Shown here: positions 5,989 to 20,523 of the stretch, piece after piece
How the letters are laid out: every line of letters begins with the position of its first letter
Numbering within the stretch: the first letter of the stretch is position 1
Source of the DNA: Candidatus Cloacimonadota bacterium
GTDB lineage: Bacteria; Cloacimonadota; Cloacimonadia; G963667145
Assembly: GCA_963667255.1 (NCBI GenBank)
Contig: OY762940.1
Coordinates: 1,472,001 to 1,536,000 of the forward strand
DNA: 64,000 bases
Direction of reading: 5' to 3'
Position numbers and translations under genes: made by a program
Notes under the pieces: generated by a model
The model's input: the letters and a program-made list of their open reading frames with translations, nothing else
The model's database searches: none
Told to the model about the DNA's origin: nothing

Positions 5989-6085
5989 CCTCGCTCCCAA
6001 GCTCCAGCTTGGGAGTGTATGCTTATCAATAACCTGCTATAAATTAAGTAGATATGCATTCCCAAGCTGGAGCTTGGGAACGAGG
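5989..6085. repeat. REPIN-like element: two inverted 32-bp palindromic REP units
   Basis: CCTCGCTCCCAAGCTCCAGCTTGGGAGTGTAT (5989-6020) and its inverted copy (6054-6085, 3 mismatches), 33-bp spacer. Confidence 0.8.
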
Positions 6086-6164
6086 GGGTAAGGCGTGGTG
6101 GTATGAGAATGAGGGTAGTGATGCGAGAATGTAGGCGGTGGGAGGTGCAGGAAGTGGGTGGAAC

Positions 6165-6236: not shown

Positions 6237-6623
6237 TTGGACAAAAGAGAGAAAACTTTTAGATATTCAAAAGCTTTCAGAAATGAGGTTCTAAAGAATG
6301 TCAAAAACAAAAAATTGACGGTTTTGGAAGCGGGTAAATATTATGGAGTGGGATTTCCAACTATTTATCGATGGTTGAAAAAAGCTAATTATGACACGCC
6401 CTGTAAGGAGGTAATTTTTGTGAAACTATCAGATCAGCACTCTGCTTTGCAAGAGATTGAGGAGTTAAAAAAAGAGAATCGTGCTTTAAAAGAGGCTGTG
6501 AGCAAGTTAACGCTCGATAAATTGTGCCTTGAAAAGTGTGTAGAAATTGGTGAGCGGGACTTTGGTATGGAATTAAAAAAAAAGCCCGAAGTACAGGAAT
6601 TGAGGAAATCAGGCAGAAAATAG
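6237..6623 (+). CDS. IS3-family transposase OrfA (HTH + leucine zipper)
   Basis: RYSKAFR...YGVGFPTIYRW HTH and EELKKENRALKEA coiled coil. GGAGG SD before TTG. Confidence 0.88.
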   Translation: MDKREKTFRYSKAFRNEVLKNVKNKKLTVLEAGKYYGVGFPTIYRWLKKANYDTPCKEVIFVKLSDQHSALQEIEELKKENRALKEAVSKLTLDKLCLEKCVEIGERDFGMELKKKPEVQELRKSGRK

Positions 6624-7468
6624 TGGAGAAAAAGTTCCCTTTTAAAATGAATTCTGTTTGTAAATGGTTTGGGATTAGCAAGTCCGGTTTTTATAAAAAG
6701 AAGAAGCACATCGAAAAAACAAAGAAAATTGAAGATGAGATTTGCTTGCATATAAATGCGTTACGCAAATTTGGACTTATGTGTGGAGCAAGAAAAACCA
6801 AGATTCATTTAAAGGAAGATTTTGACATTATTGTGGGCAGAGATAAATTGTTTGATATTATGAGAGAAAACGATTTGCAAAGTAAATTTATTAGGAAAAA
6901 AGTTCAACATTCCAGTGGAGTTAAGCAAATCTTTGAGAATATGTTAACCGATGAATTTAAGAAATCTGTTACAAAATTTGGGCAAGTAATTGTGACAGAT
7001 ATTACCTATATCAAATTGCCCAATAATAAGTTCTGTTACATTAGTTTAGTTACGGATTTGGCTACCAGAAAAATTTTGGGGTATAATGTGGCTCAAACTC
7101 TTTTGGCTGAAGAGTCGGTTAAGGTTATGCGGAAGACATTGAAAAAATATAAGTTGCCTAAAGATTGCATACATCATAGTGATAAAGGAGTGCAATATAC
7201 GAGCAAATTATACACTGATTTTTTGAAGAAAAATAATTTTAGAATGAGCATGACAGGTGCGGGCAAATGTTATGATAATGCTTGTGCAGAGCGAGTTTTT
7301 AATACTTTGAAGAACGAATTTGGTTTTAATGCTGTTTTTTCAAGTTTGAAGGAAGTGCGAAGAGAGTTGAAGAATTTTGTTGATATTTATAACAATAGAC
7401 GATATCATATGAGTTTGGACTATAGAACACCGCAAAGTGTGTTTTTGGAGATGCAGAAAGCTGCATAA
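6623..7468 (+). CDS. IS3-family transposase OrfB (DDE integrase core)
   Basis: TDITYI, HHSDKGVQYTS, CYDNACAERVFNTLKNE and YNNRRYH.SL motifs. Lies in the -1 frame relative to orfA. Confidence 0.93.
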   Translation: MEKKFPFKMNSVCKWFGISKSGFYKKKKHIEKTKKIEDEICLHINALRKFGLMCGARKTKIHLKEDFDIIVGRDKLFDIMRENDLQSKFIRKKVQHSSGVKQIFENMLTDEFKKSVTKFGQVIVTDITYIKLPNNKFCYISLVTDLATRKILGYNVAQTLLAEESVKVMRKTLKKYKLPKDCIHHSDKGVQYTSKLYTDFLKKNNFRMSMTGAGKCYDNACAERVFNTLKNEFGFNAVFSSLKEVRRELKNFVDIYNNRRYHMSLDYRTPQSVFLEMQKAA

Positions 7469-7686
7469 TTAATAAAAAACTGAGTCCACTATTTTAGGAC
7501 TGGACAAGTGCTCCGCAATTATTCATTATTCATTCTTATCTTTTATTTGCTTTTGCTCCCTGTTCTTCTTAGTCCTCTTGCTACTATAATCCTCATACTC
7601 ACTGTCTCTCAAGCACAAGGCTACTCTATTGCTTGGTGTTTTTGTGCTTGGCAAGTGGATATCCTTTCTTACCTATCCTCTTAAAT

Positions 7687-7712
7687 AAAAAAAGCCTCCT
7701 AATCGGAGGCTT
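7687..7712 (-). terminator. Intrinsic terminator after the lipoprotein gene
   Basis: AAGCCTCC-GATTA-GGAGGC followed by T7 on the minus strand. Confidence 0.75.
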
Positions 7713-7728
7713 AGTTTCTATTTTTATT

Positions 7729-8178
7729 CTATTGCTTCGTATAGATATCAGCACCTGTCCAACTAGAAGAATTGGTGGCATTATAGAATTTTGAATTTTC
7801 AATCTTATAATATGAAGTCCGAGTTTCTGAGCCACTGCTTGTTTCTGAATTAGAATTATCAATTTGTCCATTTATGTATACTTTTTTTGTATAGTTGTAA
7901 GCAGCAACTAAAGTTTTAGGATTTGTTGAAGTATTCGTAGAAAAAGTCCCTTCCATAGATGTAATTGAATAATAGTTTTCATTAGTAACTTTTTTGCGAT
8001 ATCTAGTAAAACTACCTGAACTACTAACGACTATTCTTTCATAACCATTATTATCTAATGACATATACCATGTACCCACCAAATCAGGGTCAATAGAACT
8101 GTCATTACTCGTAGAGCTACCACATCCAACCACTCCACACAGCATTACTAATACTGTTAATATCATCAATTTTTTCAT
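7729..8178 (-). CDS. Orphan lipoprotein, possibly lipocalin-like beta-barrel
   Basis: Signal peptide MKKLMILTVLVMLCGVVG-C (lipobox), Ser-rich linker, LVGTW motif. GAGGA SD before ATG 8178. AT-rich. Confidence 0.75.
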   Translation of the reverse strand: MKKLMILTVLVMLCGVVGCGSSTSNDSSIDPDLVGTWYMSLDNNGYERIVVSSSGSFTRYRKKVTNENYYSITSMEGTFSTNTSTNPKTLVAAYNYTKKVYINGQIDNSNSETSSGSETRTSYYKIENSKFYNATNSSSWTGADIYTKQ

Positions 8179-8209
8179 TCTTTCCTCGCTTTTTTTATTT
8201 TTTAAACAC

Positions 8210-8247
8210 AAAAAAAGAGACAGCCCGAAAAATCCGAACTATCTCTT
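8210..8247 (-). terminator. Intrinsic terminator in the 5' leader of the lipoprotein gene (attenuator)
   Basis: AAGAGAUAGUUCGGA-UUU-UUCGGGCUGUCUCUU followed by a U-run. The 15-bp stem has 4 G-U pairs that form only on the minus strand. Confidence 0.8.
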
Positions 8248-8274
8248 AACTTATATAAAATTCTATTGACTACA

Positions 8275-8373
8275 TCATAACCACACAGCCTCGACTGACC
8301 GACTGACCGACTGACCGACTGACCGACTGACCGACTGACCGACTGACCGACTGACCGATTTATTTATTTTCAT
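8275..8373 (-). CDS. Putative repeat-containing leader peptide (32 aa, MKINK-SVSRSVGQ-SVSRSVGQ-SVSRSV-EAVWL)
   Basis: ATG at 8373, 6 nt after a candidate -10 box, with no SD. The ORF spans the microsatellite and stops at TGA 8277-8275. Confidence 0.55.
   Translation of the reverse strand: MKINKSVSRSVGQSVSRSVGQSVSRSVEAVWL
8293..8358. repeat. Perfect octanucleotide microsatellite (GACTGACC)8 + GA
   Basis: Directly visible tandem repeat; unit length not a multiple of 3. Confidence 0.98.
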
Positions 8374-8379
8374 ACAGCA

Positions 8380-8407
8380 ACAATTTGATTATTTTTACAT
8401 CTGTCAA
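8380..8407 (-). promoter_or_regulatory. Putative sigma70 promoter of the leader/lipoprotein unit
   Basis: Perfect TTGACA (8407-8402), 16-bp spacer, weak -10 AATTGT (8385-8380). Confidence 0.55.
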
Positions 8408-8487
8408 CACGAAATTACGAAAAATTACTATATTGTATCAGCATTATGCTTGGGCTTACTGCTACTCCCTTCCCTCTTACCTGCTCG

Positions 8488-8604
8488 CTCCCCTCATGCC
8501 CGTGAAAACGGGTATCCATTCTTGGCTCGTCTCTTAAAAAAAGCAAGTGCCAATGTCCCAACCCTATCCCCGACTGGATTCCCGCCTACGCGGGAATGAG
8601 GGAG
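8488..8604. repeat. Second REP-like inverted pair (TCATTCCCGCG...GCGGGAATCCA type)
   Basis: CTCATGCCCGTGAAAACGGGTATCCA and inverted TGGATTCCCGCCTACGCGGGAATGAG; partial copy TCATGCCCGT at 8631. Confidence 0.7.
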
Positions 8605-8651
8605 GTTTGGGATTCCTACCATTCTATTTCTCATGCCCGTTGTCTATCTTG

Positions 8652-8685
8652 CTCTCGCTCCCAAGCTTCAGCCTGGGAGCGAGAG
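8652..8685. repeat. Single REP palindrome of the same family as 5989-6085
   Basis: CTCTCGCTCCCAAGCTTCAGCCTGGGAGCGAGAG. Confidence 0.75.
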
Positions 8686-8776
8686 AGAAAAGGCAAACAA
8701 CAAAGATAGTCATACATCGTAAACAACACACAGGTTTCGCAAAACCATTTATAAAGAGAGCAATCCTACCCCAAAT

Positions 8777-8804
8777 AAAAAAGTGAGCCTTTTCAGGCTC
8801 ACTT
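8777..8804 (-). terminator. Intrinsic terminator of ppdK
   Basis: AAGTGAGCCT-GAAA-AGGCTCAC followed by T6 on the minus strand. Confidence 0.8.
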
Positions 8805-8825
8805 CCATTATTATATCTAACTAAA

Positions 8826-11534
8826 TTAATCTTCAAGCGAAGCTTGTGCAGCCGCCAAACGAGCAATCGGCACTCTGAATGGAGAACAGCTCACATAGTT
8901 CATTCCCACTTTGTAGCAGAACTTCACAGAATCAGGGTCTCCGCCATGCTCTCCGCAAATTCCCACAGACAAATCTGGTCTAACAGAACGACCTCTCTCC
9001 ACACCAATTTTCACAAGTTGTCCAACACCTTCTTGGTCAATGCTTTGGAACGGATCAACCTTCAAGATTTTCTTGTCCAAATAATCAGGCAAGAAAGTTC
9101 CGATGTCGTCTCTGGAATATCCGAAACACATTTGAGTCAAATCGTTAGTTCCAAAGGAGAAGAACTCAGCATCTTTGGCAATCAAATCGGCAGTAAGAGC
9201 GGCTCTTGGGATTTCTATCATCGTCCCAATTTCGTATTTTGGAGATTGACCGGTCTCTTGCAAAACCTTGTTCACCACTTCCATAGCAACTTGCTTTTGG
9301 TCAATGAACTCCTCGCTCTTGCCAATCAGCGGAATCATAATCTCAGGATGCACGACTACACCTTCTTTGGTCAACTGACAAGCCGCTTCCATAATGGCTC
9401 TAACCTGCATTCTGGTGATTTCTGGATAAGTGATACCCAAACGGCAACCGCGGTGACCAAGCATCGGATTTACCTCGTGCAAAGCATTCACTTTCATTTT
9501 GATTTGCTCCAAAGTAATCCCCAGCTCTTTCGCCAATTCGCCTTGATTTTCATCGTCCATCGGCAAAAACTCGTGCAAAGGCGGATCCAAAAGTCTGATA
9601 GTCACAGGCAACCCGTGCATCGCTTTCAAAATTCCGTAAAAATCGTCTCTTTGATAAGGCAAAAGCTCCGCCAAAGCAACTTCTCTCTCAGCGGTATTAT
9701 TCGCCAAAATCATCTTTCGCATAGACTTAATCCTTTGCGGATCAAAGAACATATGCTCCGTTCTGCACAAGCCAATTCCCACAGCTCCAAACTCCCTGGC
9801 TTTTTGAGCATCGGCAGGAGTATCAGCATTGGTGCGAACTTTCATCTTACTCACCTTGCTTGCCCATTCCATCAGTTTATAGAAATCGCCTTCCAGTTTC
9901 GGCTCAACGAGAGGCAATTGACCAACAAAAATCTCTCCAGTAGAGCCGTCCAAAGAAAGCCATTCGCCCTCTTTCACTTGCACATCGCCCACACTAAAAA
10001 GTTTCTTCTTATAATCGATGGAAATCTCTCCGCAACCTGCCACACAGCATTTTCCCATACCTCTGGCAACCACGGCAGCATGAGAAGTCTTGCCTCCGCG
10101 AGAAGTCAAAATCCCTTTAGCAACAGCCATTCCGTTGATATCTTCAGGCGAAGTCTCCACTCTGATGAGAATCACTTGCTTGCCATCATTTGCCCATTTT
10201 TCGGCTTCATCGGCACTGAACACAGCCATACCCACAGCAGCACCTGGAGATGCCGCCAAGCCTTTGGCAATAGCAGTTTTCTTGGCAGTCACATCAAAAT
10301 TAGGATGCAATAATTGGTCGAGTGAGCCAGCCTCTACTCGCAAAAGTGCGGTCTTTTCATCAATCAAACCTTCGGCAACCATATCCACGGCAATCTTGAG
10401 AGCCGCAGGAGCAGTCCTCTTTCCATTGCGAGTTTGCAACATAAAGAGCTTATTTTGTTGAATAGTAAACTCAATGTCCTGCATATCTTTGTAGTGGTGT
10501 TCCAAAGTCTTATAAACATTCACCAAATCGGCATAAGCCTTAGGCATTTTCTCTTCCAAAGACTGAAACTTTGCCAATCTTTCCTCTTCGCTAACTCCTC
10601 GCTCTTTTGCCCAGTTTTGCGAATCTTTTTTGGTCACTTGACCTGGAGTTCTCACTCCTGCAACCACATCTTCGCCTTGAGCATTTATCAAAAACTCGCC
10701 GAAGAAATGTTTTTCGCCAGTGGCAGGATCTCTGGTAAAGGCAACACCAGTCGCACAATCTTCGCCCATATTTCCGTAAACCATCGCCATAACATTTACA
10801 GCAGTTCCCCAATCGTCAGGGATTTTGTTCAATCTACGATAAGTGATAGCTCTTTGATTGTTCCACGAACCGAAAACCGCATCAATTGCTCCCCAAAGTT
10901 GTTTGTAAGGATCTTGCGGAAAATCTCTTCCCGCTTTGTCTTTCACCACTTTTTTAAATTTCTCTACCAATTTTTGCAAAGCAGCAGCAGACAAATCCAC
11001 ATCGTCTTTCACTCCGTTTTCAGCTTTTATCTTATCGATTTCCACTTCAAAAGGGTCGTGCTCGTCCCAACTGGCAGCACCCACTCCCATTACCACACCG
11101 GCATACATTTGTATGAAACGACGGTAAGTGTCCCAAGCAAATTTTTCGTTTCCAGATTTGGCTATCAAACCTTTAACTATTTCATCATTGAGACCAAGAT
11201 TAAGCACCGTATCCATCATCCCTGGCATAGAAACTCTAGCTCCAGACCGCACGGAAACAAGCAAAGGATTGGCAACATCACCAAAAGTCAAATTCATCTC
11301 TTTTTCCATTTTGGCAACCGCATCCTTGACTTGCTTATTCAAATCGGACGGATATTGATTGGCATTGCTTGTATAATAATTGCACACCTGAGTAGTGATA
11401 GTAAATCCTGGTGGCACTGGTATCCCAAGTTTGCACATTTGTGCGACATTGGCTCCTTTGCCTCCCAAAAGATTTCTCATTTCGGCATCACCGTCAGCAT
11501 GCGACCCGCCGAATGAATAGACTAATTTATCCAT
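8826..11534 (-). CDS. ppdK: Pyruvate, phosphate dikinase
   Basis: LLGGKGAN, PLLVSVRSGARVSMPGMMDT, RGGKTSHAAVVARG, GIGLCRTEHMF, FSFGTNDLTQ and GICGEHGGDP motifs. GGAGG SD before ATG 11534. Confidence 0.98.
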   Translation of the reverse strand: MDKLVYSFGGSHADGDAEMRNLLGGKGANVAQMCKLGIPVPPGFTITTQVCNYYTSNANQYPSDLNKQVKDAVAKMEKEMNLTFGDVANPLLVSVRSGARVSMPGMMDTVLNLGLNDEIVKGLIAKSGNEKFAWDTYRRFIQMYAGVVMGVGAASWDEHDPFEVEIDKIKAENGVKDDVDLSAAALQKLVEKFKKVVKDKAGRDFPQDPYKQLWGAIDAVFGSWNNQRAITYRRLNKIPDDWGTAVNVMAMVYGNMGEDCATGVAFTRDPATGEKHFFGEFLINAQGEDVVAGVRTPGQVTKKDSQNWAKERGVSEEERLAKFQSLEEKMPKAYADLVNVYKTLEHHYKDMQDIEFTIQQNKLFMLQTRNGKRTAPAALKIAVDMVAEGLIDEKTALLRVEAGSLDQLLHPNFDVTAKKTAIAKGLAASPGAAVGMAVFSADEAEKWANDGKQVILIRVETSPEDINGMAVAKGILTSRGGKTSHAAVVARGMGKCCVAGCGEISIDYKKKLFSVGDVQVKEGEWLSLDGSTGEIFVGQLPLVEPKLEGDFYKLMEWASKVSKMKVRTNADTPADAQKAREFGAVGIGLCRTEHMFFDPQRIKSMRKMILANNTAEREVALAELLPYQRDDFYGILKAMHGLPVTIRLLDPPLHEFLPMDDENQGELAKELGITLEQIKMKVNALHEVNPMLGHRGCRLGITYPEITRMQVRAIMEAACQLTKEGVVVHPEIMIPLIGKSEEFIDQKQVAMEVVNKVLQETGQSPKYEIGTMIEIPRAALTADLIAKDAEFFSFGTNDLTQMCFGYSRDDIGTFLPDYLDKKILKVDPFQSIDQEGVGQLVKIGVERGRSVRPDLSVGICGEHGGDPDSVKFCYKVGMNYVSCSPFRVPIARLAAAQASLED

Positions 11535-11804: not shown

Positions 11805-13049
11805 CTACAAAATCTCCCCGACTAAATCATACTCGAAACTATCGGTAATCTTCACTTTTTGAATAGAGCCAACTTCCCGCTTGTCGTCAAGATACACCAC
11901 GCCGTCTATCTCGGGAGCGTCATATCGAGTGCGAGCGATATTTCCCTCATCCAACATCACTTCCAACTCTTGCCCCACAAATCGTTGCAAATTCACTTTG
12001 GAAATATCTATCTGAGCACTCATCAAAGTATCTGCTCGTTTTTGTGCGACTTTCTCGGGAACTTCCGGTTGCAAATCGTAAGCCTTTGTCCCCTCTTCCT
12101 TGGAATAGGCAAAAACACCCATTTTATCAAATTTGTTCTTTTTTACAAACTCTTGCAACACAACAAAATCTTCCTTATCTTCCGTAGGGAAACCGGTGAT
12201 AAATGTCGTTCTGATTACCTTCTCCTGCTCAAAACTGCGAATGTAATCGATAAATTCTTGAAGCTCATTTCTCGTCCGTTTCCTGTTCATCGCTCGCAAA
12301 ATCTTGTCGCTGGCATGTTGAAAAGGTATCTCGAAATATTTACAAATCTTGGGCATCGCAAAAACAAAATCGATAAGCTCTTTGCTCAGGTGGTCGGGAT
12401 GCAAATATAATAGCCTAATCCACTCAATTCCCTGTATGTTGTGGATTTTTGTCAGAAGAGCAAGCAAGCGATTTTCTCCATAAATATCCGTGCCATACAG
12501 ACAAATATCCTGAGCTGTAACGATTAGCTCCTTGACACCAATTTTGGCAAGGAACTCAGCTTCATCCACCAACTCTTCTATCGCCCTGCTGGTAAATCTG
12601 CCCCGAATATAGGGAATGGCACAATAGCTACAATAGTTGTCACAGCCATCACTTATGCGTAAATAAGCATAATGATTTGGCGTCAAAAGAGAACGAGAAT
12701 TAGAAAATTCCGCTTTGAATATTTTGGCAAACTCGGTAAAATCTTTGAGGTCAACAAGGTAATCAATTTCGGGAATTTCCTGTGCCAACTGTTCCTTGTA
12801 TCTTTTCACAAAACACCCGCTGACAATAAGTTTGGCTCTCTCATTTTTCTCTTCTGCCACCTGCAAAATGGTGTCGATGGTCTCTTCCTTGGCAGATTGA
12901 ATAAAAGCACAAGTGTTAATTATCACGAAATCGGCAGAAGCTAAATCGGCAGTTTCGGAGAGACCAGCACCGTCCAAAATTGCTTTAAATCGCTCGCTAT
13001 CCACCAAATTTTTGGGACAACCGAGGCTGATAATCAGATATTGCTTCAT
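11805..13049 (-). CDS. rimO: Ribosomal protein S12 methylthiotransferase
   Basis: SLGCPKNLVDSE, radical SAM CDNYCSYC, RLLYLHP and DAPEIDG motifs. Confidence 0.95.
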   Translation of the reverse strand: MKQYLIISLGCPKNLVDSERFKAILDGAGLSETADLASADFVIINTCAFIQSAKEETIDTILQVAEEKNERAKLIVSGCFVKRYKEQLAQEIPEIDYLVDLKDFTEFAKIFKAEFSNSRSLLTPNHYAYLRISDGCDNYCSYCAIPYIRGRFTSRAIEELVDEAEFLAKIGVKELIVTAQDICLYGTDIYGENRLLALLTKIHNIQGIEWIRLLYLHPDHLSKELIDFVFAMPKICKYFEIPFQHASDKILRAMNRKRTRNELQEFIDYIRSFEQEKVIRTTFITGFPTEDKEDFVVLQEFVKKNKFDKMGVFAYSKEEGTKAYDLQPEVPEKVAQKRADTLMSAQIDISKVNLQRFVGQELEVMLDEGNIARTRYDAPEIDGVVYLDDKREVGSIQKVKITDSFEYDLVGEIL

Positions 13050-14746
13050 CTATCGATTTTCTTCAGCAACGACTTCAGACTTTTGTAATCTTCCTTGATG
13101 TTTACCATCGCCCCGGGCATAAATCTCGCCTGTTCAAATTTATTAATCAAACCCTTAATCTGCGAAATCAAATCGGCATCTATGCCTTTTGCAGACAAAG
13201 CATCACAAATTTCCAAAGCCGTAGTGCCTCTATCCAAGGAAACAAAATCACATAAATAGTGCAAAAATCCGCTATGAGCAGCATTATAAAACTCAATATT
13301 ACCAGAACTCGCCAAAGCCGAAGCCTCTTTCATATACTTCTTGAAAAGCAAATCAGATTTCTTCTTATTTAGATAATCTTGGTCAAAATTCTTGTTTTTC
13401 TTAGAACTCAAAATCTTGGACAAAATCAAAGAAAGTAAAATCAACAAACCGCATAAAGCCCAATAACGATAGTCCTTTATCCAAAACTTCCCCTCTACTA
13501 AACTGGGCTCAGTGATGATAAAATCTATATCTTCAGACTTTTTTTTTACTGCCGTAGCACCTGGTCCCGCTGACTGAAAATCGTTATAATTTCCTTCCGT
13601 TTTTTTTACCTTAATCGTAGTAGGTTTGGTAGAAAGTTTCTCATACTTTTTGGTCAGCGGATTGAACACTCTAAAGGAAACTGCAGGAATAGTAAAACTC
13701 CCCGATTTCTTGGCAATAACCATATATTTAGCTTGATTCAGACCCTCTTGGGAAGTTATCTCCGGAGTCGCAAATCGATAATCATCATTTTGAGAAAATT
13801 TAGGGAAATCGTCCACAAAGTTGCCGTTACCCTCAACTTTTATGGTATATGTAATCGCATCTCCCTGATCAACTTGGTCGGAACTAACAAAAGAGTTAAT
13901 CGAAAATTTTCCTATCGAACCGTTGAAATCGGACGGCGAAGGTGGTAAATCTTTGATAACGATTTTTTGAGGCAAACTAACCAAGCGATAATCTTTGGTT
14001 CTGCCAAAGCTGAAAAAATCGTCCTCCAAATTCACTGAAGCCACTATCACCAAAGGCGATAGCTCAAAAGTGCCAGCTTTCTGAGGTATAAGTTGATAAG
14101 ACGCTAATTGCATCTTACCGTAAATCACTCCATTTACAATGTTTTGAGCAAAACTAACCTGATTGGCAGCAAAAGTTTGTTTACTCCAAAACCCATCAAA
14201 AGTAGGGTCGGTAACTTTCCTAATTCCCGAAACATTATATCTGGTGTAAACAAAATAGCTTACCAAAATTTTTTCTCCGACATAAGCGGTCGTTTTACTG
14301 ATAGTGGTTTTGATATATAGCGGAGAGTCGTTCGATTTGGTAGGATTATCAGGATTTTTGGTAACCTTGATTTCTATCGGCTTGGTCTCGTAAATCTTCG
14401 CTCCAGCTACAATCTTTTGCGCAGGAATCACAAAAGTCCCGATTTTCGTCGGCATCAAAGTGTATTTGTAACTGAAAGTTTTACTACTGGAACTTTCCCC
14501 GTTCACCAACCTATAACTGGTGGAAGTAAAATTGGACTTGCCAATTATCTTGAAATTCGGAACTTGAGATAGCGATGGTTGCGGCATACCATCATCTGTC
14601 TCCACAACCTGCAGAGTAAAAATCAACTGCTCGTGTATAGACAAACTGGTTCTGTCCACACTCGCTGTAAAACTATTGGCAAACAACAAACCGAAACTAA
14701 AAAGACAAAGAGCAAAAGCCGATATTTTTTTACCAATACTTCCCAT
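13046..14746 (-). CDS. batD: BatD-family protein
   Basis: Signal peptide, repeated Ig-like BatD segments (FTASVDR, YVGE.I, FNGSIGKF, G.GNF), C-terminal TM and ARFMP. Located in the Bat cluster. Confidence 0.8.
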   Translation of the reverse strand: MGSIGKKISAFALCLFSFGLLFANSFTASVDRTSLSIHEQLIFTLQVVETDDGMPQPSLSQVPNFKIIGKSNFTSTSYRLVNGESSSSKTFSYKYTLMPTKIGTFVIPAQKIVAGAKIYETKPIEIKVTKNPDNPTKSNDSPLYIKTTISKTTAYVGEKILVSYFVYTRYNVSGIRKVTDPTFDGFWSKQTFAANQVSFAQNIVNGVIYGKMQLASYQLIPQKAGTFELSPLVIVASVNLEDDFFSFGRTKDYRLVSLPQKIVIKDLPPSPSDFNGSIGKFSINSFVSSDQVDQGDAITYTIKVEGNGNFVDDFPKFSQNDDYRFATPEITSQEGLNQAKYMVIAKKSGSFTIPAVSFRVFNPLTKKYEKLSTKPTTIKVKKTEGNYNDFQSAGPGATAVKKKSEDIDFIITEPSLVEGKFWIKDYRYWALCGLLILLSLILSKILSSKKNKNFDQDYLNKKKSDLLFKKYMKEASALASSGNIEFYNAAHSGFLHYLCDFVSLDRGTTALEICDALSAKGIDADLISQIKGLINKFEQARFMPGAMVNIKEDYKSLKSLLKKIDR

Positions 14747-15521
14747 TTACCGGCACCTCCCCTTTCTGCTTGGATTGTTGCAAGCGAAGCATTTTTTCTT
14801 GGTTCAATATTTTATCAATTTTTTTGTCTGCCATATTCTTTTTAATAGCTTCTTTCTTTTGTTTCTTTTCATCTTCTTTGCTTGGCTTTTTCTTGTCTAC
14901 AGATTTTTGTTGTTCATTTTTTTCGTTCTTTTTCTCGTCAGAACTGTTTTGCTGTTTCTGCTCTTGCTTTTTTTGCTCATCGCTCTTCTTCGATTGTTCC
15001 TGCTTATTCTCTTTCTTCTTATCCTGCTCGCTTTTCTTTTTATCCTCTTTTTGCTGATCGCCCTGCTGATTTTGCTTGTTTTGTTGCTTTTGCTGTTCCT
15101 GCAAAAGTTTATCAGCTATCTCCAAATTTGTCCGTGCCTGATAATTACTCGGGTCTTCTTTAATCGCCTCAATGTAAGCATTTTTAGCTTTATCAAGCTC
15201 GCCTTTTTTGAAATAAGCGTTCCCAATATTTTGGTAAGCAAAAGATTTTTTCGGAAAATCTTTGTCCAATAGTGCCAAATTATATTGGCTGAGAGCCTCG
15301 TCAAACTTACCTTGTTTGTAAAAACTATCGCCCAAATTGAAATGAGAAATCCCGCTATTGTTGCCCTTCTCGACAGACGACTTACCAAAACTTTTTTCCG
15401 ACGAAGAAAAGTCCTGCTTCTCGTAAGCCCGTTTGCCCACAAAATTGTGATAAACCTGCCCAAAATTCAGAGCAAACGCACATGAAAAACTGAATATAAA
15501 AATAAAAATTATCCGTTTCAT
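14730..15521 (-). CDS. batC: BatC-like TPR protein with Q/K/E low-complexity tail
   Basis: TPR motifs (HFNLGDSFYKQG, YQNIGNAYFK, ARTNLE); ends in KYW. Confidence 0.78.
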   Translation of the reverse strand: MKRIIFIFIFSFSCAFALNFGQVYHNFVGKRAYEKQDFSSSEKSFGKSSVEKGNNSGISHFNLGDSFYKQGKFDEALSQYNLALLDKDFPKKSFAYQNIGNAYFKKGELDKAKNAYIEAIKEDPSNYQARTNLEIADKLLQEQQKQQNKQNQQGDQQKEDKKKSEQDKKKENKQEQSKKSDEQKKQEQKQQNSSDEKKNEKNEQQKSVDKKKPSKEDEKKQKKEAIKKNMADKKIDKILNQEKMLRLQQSKQKGEVPVNGKYW

Positions 15522-15523
15522 AA

Positions 15524-16528
15524 CTAATTCAAAAATCTATCTGTTTTTATAATCGATTTGCGGAAAATGAAAAATTCCAACACCAACAATATCAAAGATA
15601 AAAGAGCAAAATGAAAATACTGATGCTTGTAGGTAGTCCGCAATTTATCATCAAATTTGTTCTTTTCCAAAGTGCTTATATCGTTCAAAATCGTATAAAT
15701 TTCCGACTGATTGGGAGTGATGGAATAGGCTCTACCCCCTGTGGTATGAGCGATTGACGACAAAGTAACCATATCAAGTTTGGACTGCACGATATTGCCA
15801 TCACTGTCCTTGATGTATTTGCCACCATCATTATTGTCGAGGACAGCACTACCGAGCGGGGTCCCCACACCAACGCAATAAACTCTTACGCCGTCATTCT
15901 TCAGCTTGCTCGCCATCATCAAAGCATCTCCAGTAAGATTTTCCCCATCGGAGATAAGAAGAACTATCTTTTGATTCCCCTTCAAAACAGCGTTCGCCTG
16001 CAACAAAGCATCTTCCAAATTTGTCCCGTATTTCTTTATTAAATTGGTATTCAAAAGCTCAACGAAGAGGCGGAAAGTGGAATAGTCGTTGGTGAGCGGG
16101 CACTGAACTTTGGCGACTCCGGCAAACGGCACCAAGGCAACTCTGTCGCCCGACAATTGCTCAATAAACAGATTTATCAAATCTTTGGCTCTCGCCAATC
16201 TCGACGGCGAAATATCGGACGCATCCATACTTTTGCTGACATCTATGCAAATAGCGACATCCAAACCTTCCTGTTTGATTTTTTCCGTTTGTCTGTCCCA
16301 TTTCGGACCGGCAAGAGCGATTATCAAGAAGACAAATGACACCAAAAATAACAAATTCTTTACTTTCCAGAGAAACCCAAATCTATCCTTAAAATAGTAA
16401 GGATAAAATTTCTCTTCTGCAAATTTGGTAAAAGCACGCAAAAAAAACCTCTTACTGAACAAAATCAGCAAAAAGAAAACAGGCACTAATAACAGCAAAA
16501 ACAAAAAATAATTGTATTCAAATTCCAT
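15524..16528 (-). CDS. batB: BatB-like VWA membrane protein
   Basis: ALAGPKW, MIDAS DVSKSM, PSRLARAK, CPLTND and LISDGE motifs. Confidence 0.82.
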   Translation of the reverse strand: MEFEYNYFLFLLLLVPVFFLLILFSKRFFLRAFTKFAEEKFYPYYFKDRFGFLWKVKNLLFLVSFVFLIIALAGPKWDRQTEKIKQEGLDVAICIDVSKSMDASDISPSRLARAKDLINLFIEQLSGDRVALVPFAGVAKVQCPLTNDYSTFRLFVELLNTNLIKKYGTNLEDALLQANAVLKGNQKIVLLISDGENLTGDALMMASKLKNDGVRVYCVGVGTPLGSAVLDNNDGGKYIKDSDGNIVQSKLDMVTLSSIAHTTGGRAYSITPNQSEIYTILNDISTLEKNKFDDKLRTTYKHQYFHFALLSLILLVLEFFIFRKSIIKTDRFLN

Positions 16529-16543
16529 AATTTACTTCAAATC

Positions 16544-17530
16544 TTACGGTAAAAATATTTTTAACGGCACTCTCAAAACAAATTCCAAGAGCATACTCAA
16601 AAAAGCCAAACTCAAAAATATCCAAAATTTTTCTTTGTATTCGTAATAATTTCTAATCTTGTATTCGGTTTTCTCCAACTTGTCTATTCTGGAAAAAATC
16701 TGCTCCAACTCCTCGGTGCTTTGAGCCCGCCTTGCCATCGTAGTTCCAGTAGTTTTGGCTATGTCGTTCAGCACATTCATATCGATAGGAATATTAACTT
16801 TTTGGTGAGCTATTTTGCCAAAAAAATTGGTGTAAGGGAAATCGACAGGACCTTCCTTACCAATTCCTATCGGATACACCTTGATGCCATAAGTTGCCGC
16901 CAATTCGGCAGCCTCCCCCGGACTCACATCTCCGGCATTATTCCTGCCATCCGTGAGCAAAATCACCACCTTGGATTTGGCTTTGCTGTCTCGCAGTCTG
17001 CCGACAGCTGTTGCCAATCCCAAGCCGATAGCAGTTCCGTTGGCAGATTGGTCGATTTGCAAATCCTGCACAATTTGCGTCAACAAATTGTAGTCGAGAG
17101 TCAAGGGACATGCCGTAAAAGCGTAATCCGAAAAAGTAACAACACCAATTTTATCGTTCTTTCGCTTACTAACAAAATTGAGAGCAACTTTCTTCGCCGC
17201 CTGTAGTCTGTTGGTCGGTTGCAAATCAACCGCTTGCATAGAGCCGGAAAGGTCAACCGCCAAAATAATATCTATTCCTTTACCGGAAACTTCGGTTTTT
17301 TTGCGAGCAGAGCGGGGTCTCGCCAAAGCAACAATAAGAAACACAATCGCCAAAATCCTAAAAATAAGCGGTAAAAAACGAAACACCGAAGACCTTTTAT
17401 AAACTTTCTTCAAAATATCAAAGCGGGTATATGGCAACCGAGCCTTATGCTTGTTTCTATAAAAAAATTCAAAAAGCAAAATGGGAATTAGAATTAAAAG
17501 AAGCCAAAGATATTGAGGGTCTCTAAACAT
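16544..17530 (-). CDS. batA: BatA-like VWA membrane protein
   Basis: ALARP, DLSGSM, GTAIGLGL, LLTDGRNNAG and IDKLEKT motifs. Confidence 0.85.
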   Translation of the reverse strand: MFRDPQYLWLLLILIPILLFEFFYRNKHKARLPYTRFDILKKVYKRSSVFRFLPLIFRILAIVFLIVALARPRSARKKTEVSGKGIDIILAVDLSGSMQAVDLQPTNRLQAAKKVALNFVSKRKNDKIGVVTFSDYAFTACPLTLDYNLLTQIVQDLQIDQSANGTAIGLGLATAVGRLRDSKAKSKVVILLTDGRNNAGDVSPGEAAELAATYGIKVYPIGIGKEGPVDFPYTNFFGKIAHQKVNIPIDMNVLNDIAKTTGTTMARRAQSTEELEQIFSRIDKLEKTEYKIRNYYEYKEKFWIFLSLAFLSMLLEFVLRVPLKIFLP

Positions 17531-18482
17531 CTTCGCCCTCCTGTTTCTCAGCGATTAAATCGCTCTCCACCTCATTTTGCACCTTCTCAGCCTCTTCCTT
17601 ATCCTTTAAAAATAAATTTCTCGCCCAATCACAATAATCTCTCGACAACGAAATATCGCCTGCGTATTTAGCAAATTTGACCAAATCAGCATAAGAAAAA
17701 ATCTCAAAAAGTTTGTTATGCTCACTCATAATGGGCAATCTCAAAACAACTCTAAGTTCGTCCGTAGTCATCTGTGTAGCAGGCAAATCGTATTTCCTCT
17801 CCAAGAAAAATCGCAAAGAAAAAGATAGCTCAAAAAAGAAATTCAGAAGCTCCCCTTGTTGCAAAAACTCTTCAGCTTTTTGCAACGATTCCAATCCAAC
17901 TTGCCAAGCTGGACGATTATCAACTATCTTTTTTTCTGATTCACTACCGCTCTTTTTTCGCAAAATTTTAGGGAAAAACCTAATCAACAGCACAATAATC
18001 AATAATGCCAAAATCACAACTGCATACTCAACTGCTCCCAAATAAAGCGACTGCGGAGACCTAATATCAACTATATCTTTAACTGTCGTGTCCAAAAGCG
18101 TGTGCACCAAAAAAGGGTAAGATTCCGTTTGTATCTTCTTCTCATCGCCTTTGACATCGATATAAGAAAACTCCAACTCCGGTAAACTCACCAAGCCACT
18201 ACCGGTAAAAATGAACTGATTTTTTAATCTGACACCGGACTCTCCCTGTTCGACCTTCACATCCAGCAAAGATACTCCGGGCAAAGTATCAAACATCGGC
18301 AAAACAATTTGTGGAGATTTCTCGAGATTGCTGGCAGGGTCAGCATCCGGCAAAAGAAGCTCAGCAGAAAAAACAGTCCCAACATTCAGAGAATCGGGAG
18401 CTTTAATCTCCCATTGCTCACTCCCAAAAACTCTTCCCAACAAAAGAATAAAAAACAAAATTCCGAAAATTCTCTTTCTCAT
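17523..18482 (-). CDS. Bat-cluster accessory membrane protein
   Basis: Signal peptide, single TM, and LRFFLE...QMTTDEL...ADLVKFAK typical of the gene between DUF58 and batA. Confidence 0.7.
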   Translation of the reverse strand: MRKRIFGILFFILLLGRVFGSEQWEIKAPDSLNVGTVFSAELLLPDADPASNLEKSPQIVLPMFDTLPGVSLLDVKVEQGESGVRLKNQFIFTGSGLVSLPELEFSYIDVKGDEKKIQTESYPFLVHTLLDTTVKDIVDIRSPQSLYLGAVEYAVVILALLIIVLLIRFFPKILRKKSGSESEKKIVDNRPAWQVGLESLQKAEEFLQQGELLNFFFELSFSLRFFLERKYDLPATQMTTDELRVVLRLPIMSEHNKLFEIFSYADLVKFAKYAGDISLSRDYCDWARNLFLKDKEEAEKVQNEVESDLIAEKQEGEDV

Positions 18483-19354
18483 CTTCTTTTTATCCTTTTC
18501 TTAAAAAACTTCATAAGCTCTTTGATATAAGACTCATGCGTGTACATGGTCAACAAATCAACCTTCATCTTCTTGAAATTTTTCTCCAGTTCCTGTTCCT
18601 GTTGCTCCACCAACTGAGCAAAAAGTTTCCGCTTCTTTTTATCAAAACTATTTATAGTAAACAACTCGCCCGTCTCAGGATTGACAACATCCAAAAATCC
18701 TGCACTCGGCAACTCGGTTTCCGCTTTATCCAAAACTCGCAAAGCAACTACATCGTGCTTTTGAGACAAAATAGACAACGGCTTAATATAGTCGTCATCC
18801 AAAAAATCGGAGATAATGAAAACAACACTGCGTTTTTTGAGAACCTGTGTCAGCCGCTGGATTGCAACGCCAAGATTGGTGGTTTTCTCTTGCGGAACAA
18901 ACTGCAAAATCTCGCTCAACAACCGCAAAACAGATTTCTTGCCTTTCTTGGCAGGAATATATTTTTCCACACCTTCACAAAAAAGCATCAAACCCACTTT
19001 ATCGTTGTTGGACAAGGCAGAAAAAGCCAACACCGCTGTCAGCTCTGTGATATATTCGGATTTCAGATTTGAGTGCGTCCCGAAGAGAGTAGATGCGGAC
19101 CCATCAACCAAAAAAAGAATATTTAGCTCCCGAGTCTCCTCAAATTTTTTGATATATGGGTAATCCATTTTGGCGGACACATTCCAATCTATCTGGCGAA
19201 AACTGTCGCCGTCCTGATATTGTCGCACCTCGCTAAACTCAAGACCCTGACCTTTGAAGATGCTATGATACTCTCCAGCAAAAATATCGGAAACAATATC
19301 TTTGGTCGCAATCTCAATCTTGCGGATTTTTTTCAGAATATCTTTGGTTTCCAT
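18479..19354 (-). CDS. DUF58 family protein
   Basis: GEYHSIFKGQGLEFSEVRQY.GD..RQIDWNV, EETREL and ISDF motifs. Confidence 0.92.
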   Translation of the reverse strand: METKDILKKIRKIEIATKDIVSDIFAGEYHSIFKGQGLEFSEVRQYQDGDSFRQIDWNVSAKMDYPYIKKFEETRELNILFLVDGSASTLFGTHSNLKSEYITELTAVLAFSALSNNDKVGLMLFCEGVEKYIPAKKGKKSVLRLLSEILQFVPQEKTTNLGVAIQRLTQVLKKRSVVFIISDFLDDDYIKPLSILSQKHDVVALRVLDKAETELPSAGFLDVVNPETGELFTINSFDKKKRKLFAQLVEQQEQELEKNFKKMKVDLLTMYTHESYIKELMKFFKKRIKRR

Positions 19355-19393
19355 AATTCCAAAAACTATAAAATTTCTTAATGAAACCGAAAA

Positions 19394-20380
19394 TTACGGG
19401 ACTTGAATTTCGCCAAAAACTCTGGCAATAATATCCTCGACAGTTACCTGCTCAGCCTCAGCCTCATACGACAAAATCAATCGATGCCGTAAAACATCTT
19501 TACCAATGGCTTTGACATCATCCGGCGTAACAAATCCGCGACCACACAAGAAAGCGTGGGCTCTAGCGGCTACAGCCAAATTGATGGTAGCTCTCGGAGA
19601 CGCTCCGCATTCGATTAAATCTTGCAAATCGTCCAAATTCGCATAAGATTTCGGCTCTCTCGTGGCAAAAACCAAATCTATAATATAATCCTTAACTTTT
19701 TGCTCAATATAAACTTGCTTAATCAAAGATTTCATTTGAAGAAGTTCAGCAGGAGTAATGACAGGAGAAATCTCAGAAATATCCTCGCTTACCATCCTAT
19801 TCAAAACCAACTTTTCTTCCTCTTTGGTGGGATAATCAACTTTGAGCTTGAGCATAAATCTATCCATCTGTGCCTCAGGCAAAGGATAAGTTCCTTCCTG
19901 ATCAAGTGGGTTTTGCGTTGCCATTACCAAAAATGGGTCGTCCAATTTGTAAGTTTTATCGCCAATCGTCACTTGTTTCTCTTGCATCGCTTCCAAAAGG
20001 GCGGCTTGCACCTTGGCAGGAGCTCTGTTTATCTCGTCAGCCAACACAAAATTGGCAAAAACAGGACCCAATTTTGGATTAAACTCTCCTGTTTTTTGGT
20101 TATAAATCATAGTTCCCATGATATCAGCCGGCAACAAATCTGGTGTAAATTGGATTCTGGAAAAAGACGCTTCCACAGCTTTGGCAGTAGTGCTAATCGA
20201 CAAAGTTTTGGCAAGACCAGGAACGCCTTCCAATAGAATATGTCCGCCGGTAAGAAGTCCAATCAAAATCCTTTTAATCATATAGTCCTGACCGACTATT
20301 ACTTTTTTGATTTCTTGATTTAAACTGTTAATTTTTATGGAACTCTCAGCAACAACTCTATTTAACTCTTCTATAGTCAT
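19394..20380 (-). CDS. moxR: MoxR-family AAA+ ATPase
   Basis: LEGVPGLAKT, RIQFTPDLLPAD, DEINRAPAKVQAALLEAM and GTYPLPEAQMDRF motifs. GGAGG SD before ATG 20380. Confidence 0.95.
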   Translation of the reverse strand: MTIEELNRVVAESSIKINSLNQEIKKVIVGQDYMIKRILIGLLTGGHILLEGVPGLAKTLSISTTAKAVEASFSRIQFTPDLLPADIMGTMIYNQKTGEFNPKLGPVFANFVLADEINRAPAKVQAALLEAMQEKQVTIGDKTYKLDDPFLVMATQNPLDQEGTYPLPEAQMDRFMLKLKVDYPTKEEEKLVLNRMVSEDISEISPVITPAELLQMKSLIKQVYIEQKVKDYIIDLVFATREPKSYANLDDLQDLIECGASPRATINLAVAARAHAFLCGRGFVTPDDVKAIGKDVLRHRLILSYEAEAEQVTVEDIIARVFGEIQVP

Positions 20381-20523
20381 AATTCCTCCTAAAAATCTTG
20401 GCAATCTCACAAAAGGACTGCTAAAATGTCAAGCAAAAATTCTTTCTTTTGCCTCATAAATTACAAATTATTGTTCTTAATTCAGAGTCTATAAAAAATA
20501 ATTTCACTCAAAATTTTGATAAT

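Follow-up and report, generated by a model that had tools for sequence, protein, structure and literature searches.

The closest described counterpart of the locus analyzed here is the pilus switch of Streptococcus gallolyticus. According to the accessible part of Danne et al. 2014 (PMC3894217), the pil1 leader open reading frame (ORF), which has a ribosome-binding site (RBS), holds GCAGA repeats. Expression is low when the leader stop lies at least 28 nt before the terminator and high when the stop is 4 nt short of the terminator, inside it, or beyond it (PMC3894217). Deletion of the terminator locks the locus ON, and mutation of the ATG or RBS locks it at low expression; the layout was proven with terminator, ATG, and triple-stop mutants, and pil3 behaves like pil1 (same part of PMC3894217). 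Mycobacterial leaderless short-ORF attenuators are described, in the accessible part of bioRxiv 10.1101/834739, as sensing cysteine by ribosome stalling and acting on RBS sequestration. Our literature search, which covered mainly sources outside subscription journals, found no further described case of the architecture beyond the S. gallolyticus and mycobacterial systems.

The window (i.e., the whole stretch of 64,000 nt that was analyzed) belongs to a Cloacimonadota genome (G000) that consists of a single contig of 1,587,896 bases with 39% G+C. An earlier, sequence-only reading of the window had proposed that a microsatellite in a leader peptide decides whether a ribosome crosses a terminator ahead of a lipoprotein gene, and had named no described case of this exact architecture. 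The claim of novelty has to be withdrawn, as the architecture was shown genetically for pil1 and pil3 in 2014 (accessible part of PMC3894217). The feature is real, and on comparative sequence evidence we judge with good confidence that it is most likely a pil1-like phase-variable transcription attenuator.

Anatomy of the cassette in the window

The following features were identified, listed in the direction of transcription by window position. Counts out of 12 refer to a comparison set of six cassettes in G000 and six in the relatives G001, G002, G004, and G005.

8779..8806, minus strand: ppdK terminator (terminator prediction), expected to shield the cassette from transcripts arriving from upstream
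8402..8407, minus strand: -35 hexamer TTGACA, predicted promoter (sequence; a TTGAC-like hexamer lies 27 to 29 nt before the leader ATG in 12/12 cassettes)
8380..8385, minus strand: weak -10-like hexamer AATTGT (its final T is at -7 relative to the ATG, a position occupied by T in 9/12 cassettes)
8275..8373, minus strand: leader ORF as sequenced (8 units), 32 codons, MKINKS...VEAVWL, predicted to be leaderless (ATG 8373 is the predicted +1)
8292..8358, minus strand: perfect 8-nt microsatellite, 67 nt, 8.4 units, stop-free in all sense-strand frames
8266..8290, minus strand: weak hairpin downstream of the repeat, with GTCAA (8270-8266) at its end (folding; z = -1.1 in the window copy)
8270..8277, minus strand: early stops TGA 8277-8275 and TAG 8272-8270, ending the two predicted OFF frames (sequence)
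8210..8247, minus strand: predicted intrinsic terminator, 15-pair stem (8247-8215) plus U-run (terminator prediction, folding, covariation)
8202..8204, minus strand: TAA ending the predicted ON (read-through) frame, n = 6, 9, 12 (sequence)
8183..8187, minus strand: Shine-Dalgarno (SD) sequence GAGGA of the lipoprotein gene (sequence; the 16S 3' end of the genome has CCTCC)
7729..8178, minus strand: lipoprotein, 149 aa, lipobox, Cys19, ATG 8178 (sequence; predicted lipocalin-like eight-stranded barrel)
7692..7712, minus strand: terminator closing the one-gene lipoprotein unit (terminator prediction)

The sequence was reread, and the coordinates given previously for TTGACA, the leader ATG, the repeat, the stops, the hairpin, the SD, and the lipoprotein ATG were all confirmed. 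The whole units, (GGTCAGTC)8, occupy positions 8356-8293 (minus strand), and this microsatellite is the top-scoring of 55 tandem-repeat rows in the window. When the repeat number was simulated in silico from 0 to 15 units, the three-phase stop pattern was reproduced: the frame ended at TGA 8277-8275 for n = 2, 5, 8, and 11, at TAG 8272-8270 for n = 1, 4, 7, and 10, and at TAA 8204-8202 for n = 0, 3, 6, and 9. Only multiples of three crossed the hairpin, as had been proposed, and no repeat number fused the leader to the lipoprotein (in-frame TAG at 8241-8239). The early stops indeed lie more than 20 nt before the hairpin (TGA ends 27 nt and TAG 22 nt ahead of the stem). The sequenced allele (8 units) is predicted to be OFF. 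A switchable stop pattern also arose in 73% of 4,000 spacer shuffles of the window copy and is not beyond chance alone.

The leader ATG at 8373 lacks an SD, which agrees with the earlier description and applies to 12/12 cassettes. Regarding the TTGACA promoter, the hexamer is present and is backed by a genome-wide profile, but the promoter was unlisted by a sigma-70 scan because its -10 is poor. In that profile, a T is found at offset 28 after TTGAC[AG] in 59% of 181 intergenic sites versus 27% of 1,307 coding sites, and an A is found at offsets 35-36 in 51 to 52% of the intergenic sites versus about 30% at coding sites. We infer that the -35 is strong, that the -10 is weak, and that transcription starts at offset 35-36; overall, TTGACA seems to dominate the promoters of this genome, whose -10 region shows hardly any consensus other than the last T. 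Given that the A of the leader ATG falls at the start offset of this profile (offset 35 in the window cassette and 34 to 36 in the others), the leader is predicted to be leaderless, and cassette transcripts would start at its ATG. An ATG at a spacing of 27 to 29 nt is present in 12/12 cassettes versus 14 of the 181 intergenic TTGAC[AG] sites (cassettes included). Among long genes of G000, leaderless starts showed no clear enrichment (4, 2, and 3 genes at spacings of 28, 29, and 30). No TTGAC-like -35 with fewer than two mismatches was found between the repeat and the lipoprotein start.

The window hairpin has a folding energy of -18.2 kcal/mol (z = -7.1), and none of 200 shuffles was equally stable. 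It had been described as folding solely on the minus strand, which was not correct; the opposite strand folds too, although weakly (-7.6 versus -18.2 kcal/mol) and without a trailing U-run. Across the 12 cassettes, 92.8% of cells are paired, and 7 of 14 consensus pairs changed on both sides. The covariation score exceeded those of all 500 shuffles and of all slid controls, the latter being a comparison that favors the hairpin because its structure was derived from these very sequences. The U-run follows the hairpin in 11/12 cassettes and is lost in G000:983710. Upstream, GTCAA is invariant in 12/12 cassettes, and the weak hairpin ending in it has a negative z in 11/12 (-1.2 or lower in 9/12). 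Our guess is that the polymerase might pause at this element, giving a slow-loading ribosome time to catch up. Rfam returned eight matches at E values up to 1 in positions 7400-8900, none at its gathering score.

The lipoprotein structure model is an eight-stranded barrel (pLDDT 83), closest to lipocalin-like BT_0869 (3hty; Z, 10.2; rmsd, 2.4 over 89 residues); a lipocalin-like fold of this kind, as modeled, would not indicate a function. The protein is 42% identical to a paralogue lying behind another cassette. There was no match in Pfam, no homologue but itself among 21 candidates of similar length, and no Foldseek match at an E value of 0.001. The Atlas matches were all below 0.9 and are taken as leads only.

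The ppdK gene of G000 is 92% identical to that of another Cloacimonadota genome record (L065), in which an aconitase-like gene directly follows ppdK and the cassette and lipoprotein are absent, which indicates that the cassette and lipoprotein were gained or lost as a block. An IS3-type element (rve integrase core) lies directly downstream of the lipoprotein gene (window 6237-7468) and is absent at the L065 junction. Short palindromic intergenic repeats are present on both sides of the unit (window 8490-8700 and 5990-6110); the pattern ATTCCC-N8-GGGAAT has 13 genomic occurrences and is, we presume, reminiscent of the Neisseria dRS3 repeats. Such repeats might help cassettes move by recombination. 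Elsewhere in the window, an ORF at 11-331 reads as the tail of a Mutator-family IS transposase (the 1,111-nt IS discussed below), and 13046-20410 holds what we take, by eye, to be an operon of MoxR AAA+, DUF58, vWA, and TPR genes (BatI-like).

Repeat number in the population was approached through public contigs, in which the junction k-mers of the window feature were found without differences. Contig depth over the window repeat was 5.4, 5.1, and 4.9 times that of the flanks in X1, X2, and X3, respectively; with k = 31 assumed and the contigs of four runs from one study breaking inside the repeat, 7, 8, and 9 units predict ratios of 4, 5, and 6. The ratio of about 5 therefore indicates a dominant allele of about 8 units, where one of the depth runs may be the source of the assembly itself. 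For the copy at 898159, the X2 and X3 contigs have the same spacing as G000. No repeat-number variation was seen in the contigs examined.

Related cassettes in the genome and genus

We scanned G000 for perfect non-triplet tracts of at least 5 copies and at least 20 nt. Six such tracts were detected, all of which belong to one cassette family. The sixth is the window tract, (GGTCAGTC)8; the other five are as follows (G000 positions).

63445: (AGTC)30, cassette with homologous flanks
131256: (CAGTT)18, type-B cassette with homologous flanks
898159: (AGTC)5, cassette with homologous flanks
983710: (CAGTT)22, type-B cassette with homologous flanks
1390818: (TCAGTTGG)9, cassette with homologous flanks

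The flank order common to the six is TTGAC, ATG, repeat, a spacer starting with AGG and containing GTCAA, and hairpin. A seventh cassette was not found in G000. A homology-free scan of G000 required TTGAC, an ATG 27 to 29 nt downstream, a short ORF, and a terminator no more than 300 nt away. Of the 10 sites that it returned, 4 contained a repeat, and these were the 4 intact lipoprotein-type cassettes, carrying the 4 strongest hairpins. The sole long triplet-multiple tract of the genome is a perfect 9-nt repeat of 7.6 copies (G000:C1:1329830-1329897).

Four of the G000 cassettes lie ahead of lipoprotein genes, whose products have FGE-sulfatase, F5/8, fn3, or PPC domains or no recognized domain. 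The idea of a diversity-generating retroelement behind the FGE-domain cargo was rejected, as G000 gave no RVT_1 match. Three of the six G000 copies are damaged, two by IS insertions and one by loss of the U-run. In the 898159 cassette, a Mutator-family IS separates the terminator from the SD. This 1,111-nt element (G000:C1:131358-132468 and 898270-899390) struck two of the six cassettes and has many copies in G000 (about 19 of one end). A MutS gene is present in G000, so loss of MutS does not explain the tracts.

The two type-B cassettes (131256 and 983710) precede non-exported genes, namely, EcsC/PDC-S29, TerB, and GIY-YIG genes at 131256 and LeoBC, LeoA, and GIY-YIG genes at 983710. PADLOC profiles matched a predicted Eleos/Dynamins system at G000:983961-987428 (LeoBC, E = 2e-114; LeoA, E = 5e-126), and the type-B cargo is predicted to include anti-phage genes. 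Downstream, the two loci have 1.84 kb in common (98.6%), with a 16S gene a few kilobases further on in each case. Both rRNA operons are thus preceded by a common frame of type-B cassette, variable cargo, and GIY-YIG gene (G000:C1:127877-132540 and 983642-989300), which looks like a variable defense slot with its cargo swapped between EcsC/PDC-S29 plus TerB and LeoBC plus LeoA. Both type-B cassettes are damaged; at 131256, the leader is split by the 1,111-nt IS with an 8-nt duplication. An ATG in frame with LeoBC lies 21 codons ahead of its start (G000:C1:983897-983960), with a TGA after it. Because this upstream ATG meets a TGA and the PADLOC profile match begins at position 17, the LeoBC N terminus may be broken.

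Six more cassettes were found in four of five same-genus relatives (two each in G001 and G002 and one each in G004 and G005), and none was found in G003. A covariance model (R1) trained on the 12 copies recovers them by construction. Its other matches, comprising 15 in G001 to G005 and 3 in G000 (34.6 bits or less), showed no repeat-bearing leader on reading, nor did its 4 matches outside the genus among 151 genomes (36 to 44 bits). No cassette outside the genus was found among the 151 genomes searched with the model or the 232 phylum genomes searched with two repeat patterns. In the latter search, which misses other units and in which many genomes are fragmented, (AGTC)4 was present in 3 of 232 genomes and (CAGTT)3CAGT in 1 of 232, all in this genus. 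One metagenome match to the terminator pattern (L039) had neither a repeat nor a leader and was rejected as chance, and viral contigs gave no match to the leader-start pattern. On inspection by eye, a weak R1 match, L152 (G148:C83:5243-5329), looks like a TPP riboswitch whose terminator resembles that of the cassette.

The repeat units of the 12 cassettes (AGTC, CAGTT, CAGCAGT, TCAGTTGG, TCGGTCAG, and CGTG) are all non-triplet (4, 5, 7, or 8 nt) and stop-free on the sense strand, whereas the antisense strand has a stop in 11/12 tracts. The leader ATG frame is open to the repeat end in 12/12 copies, with a stop in another frame of the prerepeat stretch in 11/12; the shuffle probabilities are 0.30 to 0.76 per copy. 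In all 12, at least one frame stops at least 20 nt before the stem and another comes within 10 nt of it (thresholds, 20 and 10 nt), a switchable pattern that 73 to 78% of spacer shuffles per copy also give. As the 12 copies are homologous and not independent, products of such probabilities overstate the case. The proposal that exactly one frame spans the terminator, with ON at multiples of three, holds for the window copy but does not generalize: 9 of the 12 copies have two frames near the stem (i.e., within 10 nt of it or crossing it) and one early stop.

Repeat number differs between close copies. The two G001 copies have prerepeat leaders that are letter-for-letter alike, with (AGTC)21 in one and 9 units in the other, and near-identical paralogues in G000 have (CAGTT)22 and (CAGTT)18. 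The predicted states of the 12 sequenced copies are 6 OFF, 4 ON, and 1 borderline, the remaining copy being split by an IS. In 12/12 cassettes, the hairpin is followed, directly or behind an IS, by a gene on the same strand, and nine of these genes encode lipoproteins (six assigned by lipobox pattern and three by eye, i.e., the 898159 gene behind the IS and both G001 genes). The cargo of one G001 copy carries C-type lectin repeats (Pfam was applied to three of the six cargo proteins of the relatives). The G005 leader (L003) contains three short tracts in a row, (AATC)3, (TCAGC)2, and (CGTG)5, which may represent repeat-unit turnover caught in progress.

Proposed switch and alternative explanations

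The sequence-only reading attributed switching to translation-coupled antitermination. In the version of this scheme that we consider likely, a leaderless transcript would begin at ATG 8373, and the number of 8-nt repeats would set which stop codon the leader frame meets. With 7, 8, or 10 units, the frame would stop 27 or 22 nt ahead of the hairpin, leaving the terminator to fold and the lipoprotein gene mostly OFF. At 6 or 9 units, the frame would pass through the hairpin to TAA 8204-8202, and a ribosome trailing the polymerase, provided that the two are coupled in this phylum, would block hairpin folding and turn the gene ON. Slipped-strand mispairing would then flip cells of a population between the ON and OFF phenotypes. 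The same anatomy recurs in 12 homologous cassettes, and because ATG position, open frame, and hairpin are kept while repeat unit and copy number change, the mechanism is well supported comparatively; the start site, leaderless translation, termination, ribosome-polymerase coupling, slippage within a population, and the phenotype are all inferred.

The repeat could instead tune read-through by its length or by RNA or DNA structure, without translation (e.g., through pausing, stability, or a factor binding GTCAA or the repeat). Such a model can draw on the absence of an SD before the leader and on the weak hairpin ending on GTCAA, an invariant element that the leader model leaves unexplained. 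What it does not explain is the fixed ATG, the open frame, and the non-triplet, stop-free units; moreover, a binding site would be incompatible with a unit that varies in length and sequence (to CGTG in G005). Only one NusG-family gene is present in the genome, hence no second antiterminator of that family was found. GTCAA as the -35 of an antisense promoter was likewise unsupported, since the T at offset 28 typical of this genome is absent in the window copy. We consider regulation without translation unlikely. Somewhat less probable still is that the cassette is an independent gene for a small RNA or peptide, or a by-product in decay, with the lipoprotein expressed by leak or from an unseen promoter. 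The damage to half of the G000 copies, the commonness of the frame pattern by chance, and the lack of variation seen in contigs would fit this idea. However, all 12 hairpins are followed by a same-strand gene (9 lipoproteins), long perfect tracts are confined to the cassette context, the leader peptide is not conserved since unit and frame change, and no Rfam family reached its gathering score.

Translational coupling is the explanation to which we assign the lowest probability of all. A ribosome ending at TAA 8204-8202 would reinitiate at the lipoprotein gene, with the hairpin as a leaky terminator or structural element, and the long frame of the window copy does end 14 nt before the lipoprotein SD. 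This stop is not conserved, however, its position varying between 10 nt ahead of the stem and 52 nt beyond the stem start, and the hairpin leaves the SD uncovered and carries a U-run in 11/12 copies.

Comparison with described systems

By its anatomy, the cassette would work like pil1, a likeness known from layout and not from homology. As far as the accessible part of PMC3894217 describes them, pil1 and pil3 share with the cassettes the order of promoter, short leader ORF with a non-triplet repeat, intrinsic terminator, and surface-protein gene(s), and in pil1, too, repeat number shifts the leader stop between positions far from and near or past the hairpin. There are also differences. In pil1, an RBS precedes the leader ATG and the start site lies further upstream, whereas the cassettes have an SD in 0/12 copies and an ATG at the predicted +1. 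The unit is GCAGA in pil1 versus the six units listed above, and the targets are sortase pili in a Firmicute versus lipoproteins and predicted defense genes in Cloacimonadota. Of the three frames, one is low and two are high in pil1, whereas two are predicted to be OFF and one ON in the window copy, where both OFF distances (22 and 27 nt) fall below the minimum OFF distance reported for pil1 (28 nt).

Like the mycobacterial attenuators, as presented in the accessible part of bioRxiv 10.1101/834739, the cassettes would have a leaderless short ORF at the 5' end and a ribosome whose position controls downstream genes. Unlike in those attenuators, the input would be a heritable change in repeat length, and the output would be termination; the cassettes are without a sensory stalling codon tract, and the leader peptide differs between copies and frames. 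With classical repeat-mediated phase variation, as summarized in PMC3894217, they would share slipped-strand mispairing of a perfect tract that switches a surface gene. In contrast to those systems, in which the repeat lies in the coding sequence or promoter spacer, the cassette leaves coding sequence and promoter spacing unchanged, and the leader is not fused to the lipoprotein.

What is new here is the predicted leaderless form, a genus-wide cassette with exchangeable units, and placement before predicted anti-phage genes (both G000 copies damaged). A broader and distinctly tentative proposal is that a portable leaderless ON/OFF cassette arose in this genus without any link to Streptococcus. 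Its unit would be freely exchanged (4, 5, 7, or 8 nt), setting switching rate and ON fraction, and the cassette would phase-vary surface lipoproteins as well as anti-phage operons (an Eleos/dynamin pair and a PDC-S29 gene) before both rRNA operons. Such switches would escape surveys that consider only repeats within coding sequences or promoter spacers. The six G000 paralogues, with their different units, form a natural series relating unit length to switching rate, and a leaderless version would test whether 5'-loading ribosomes stay near enough to the polymerase to keep a terminator from acting. In our literature search, the only proven case was the S. gallolyticus pilus switch; its counterpart as a genus-wide family in an uncultured phylum far removed from streptococci would mark the switch as a general, convergent route to phase variation.
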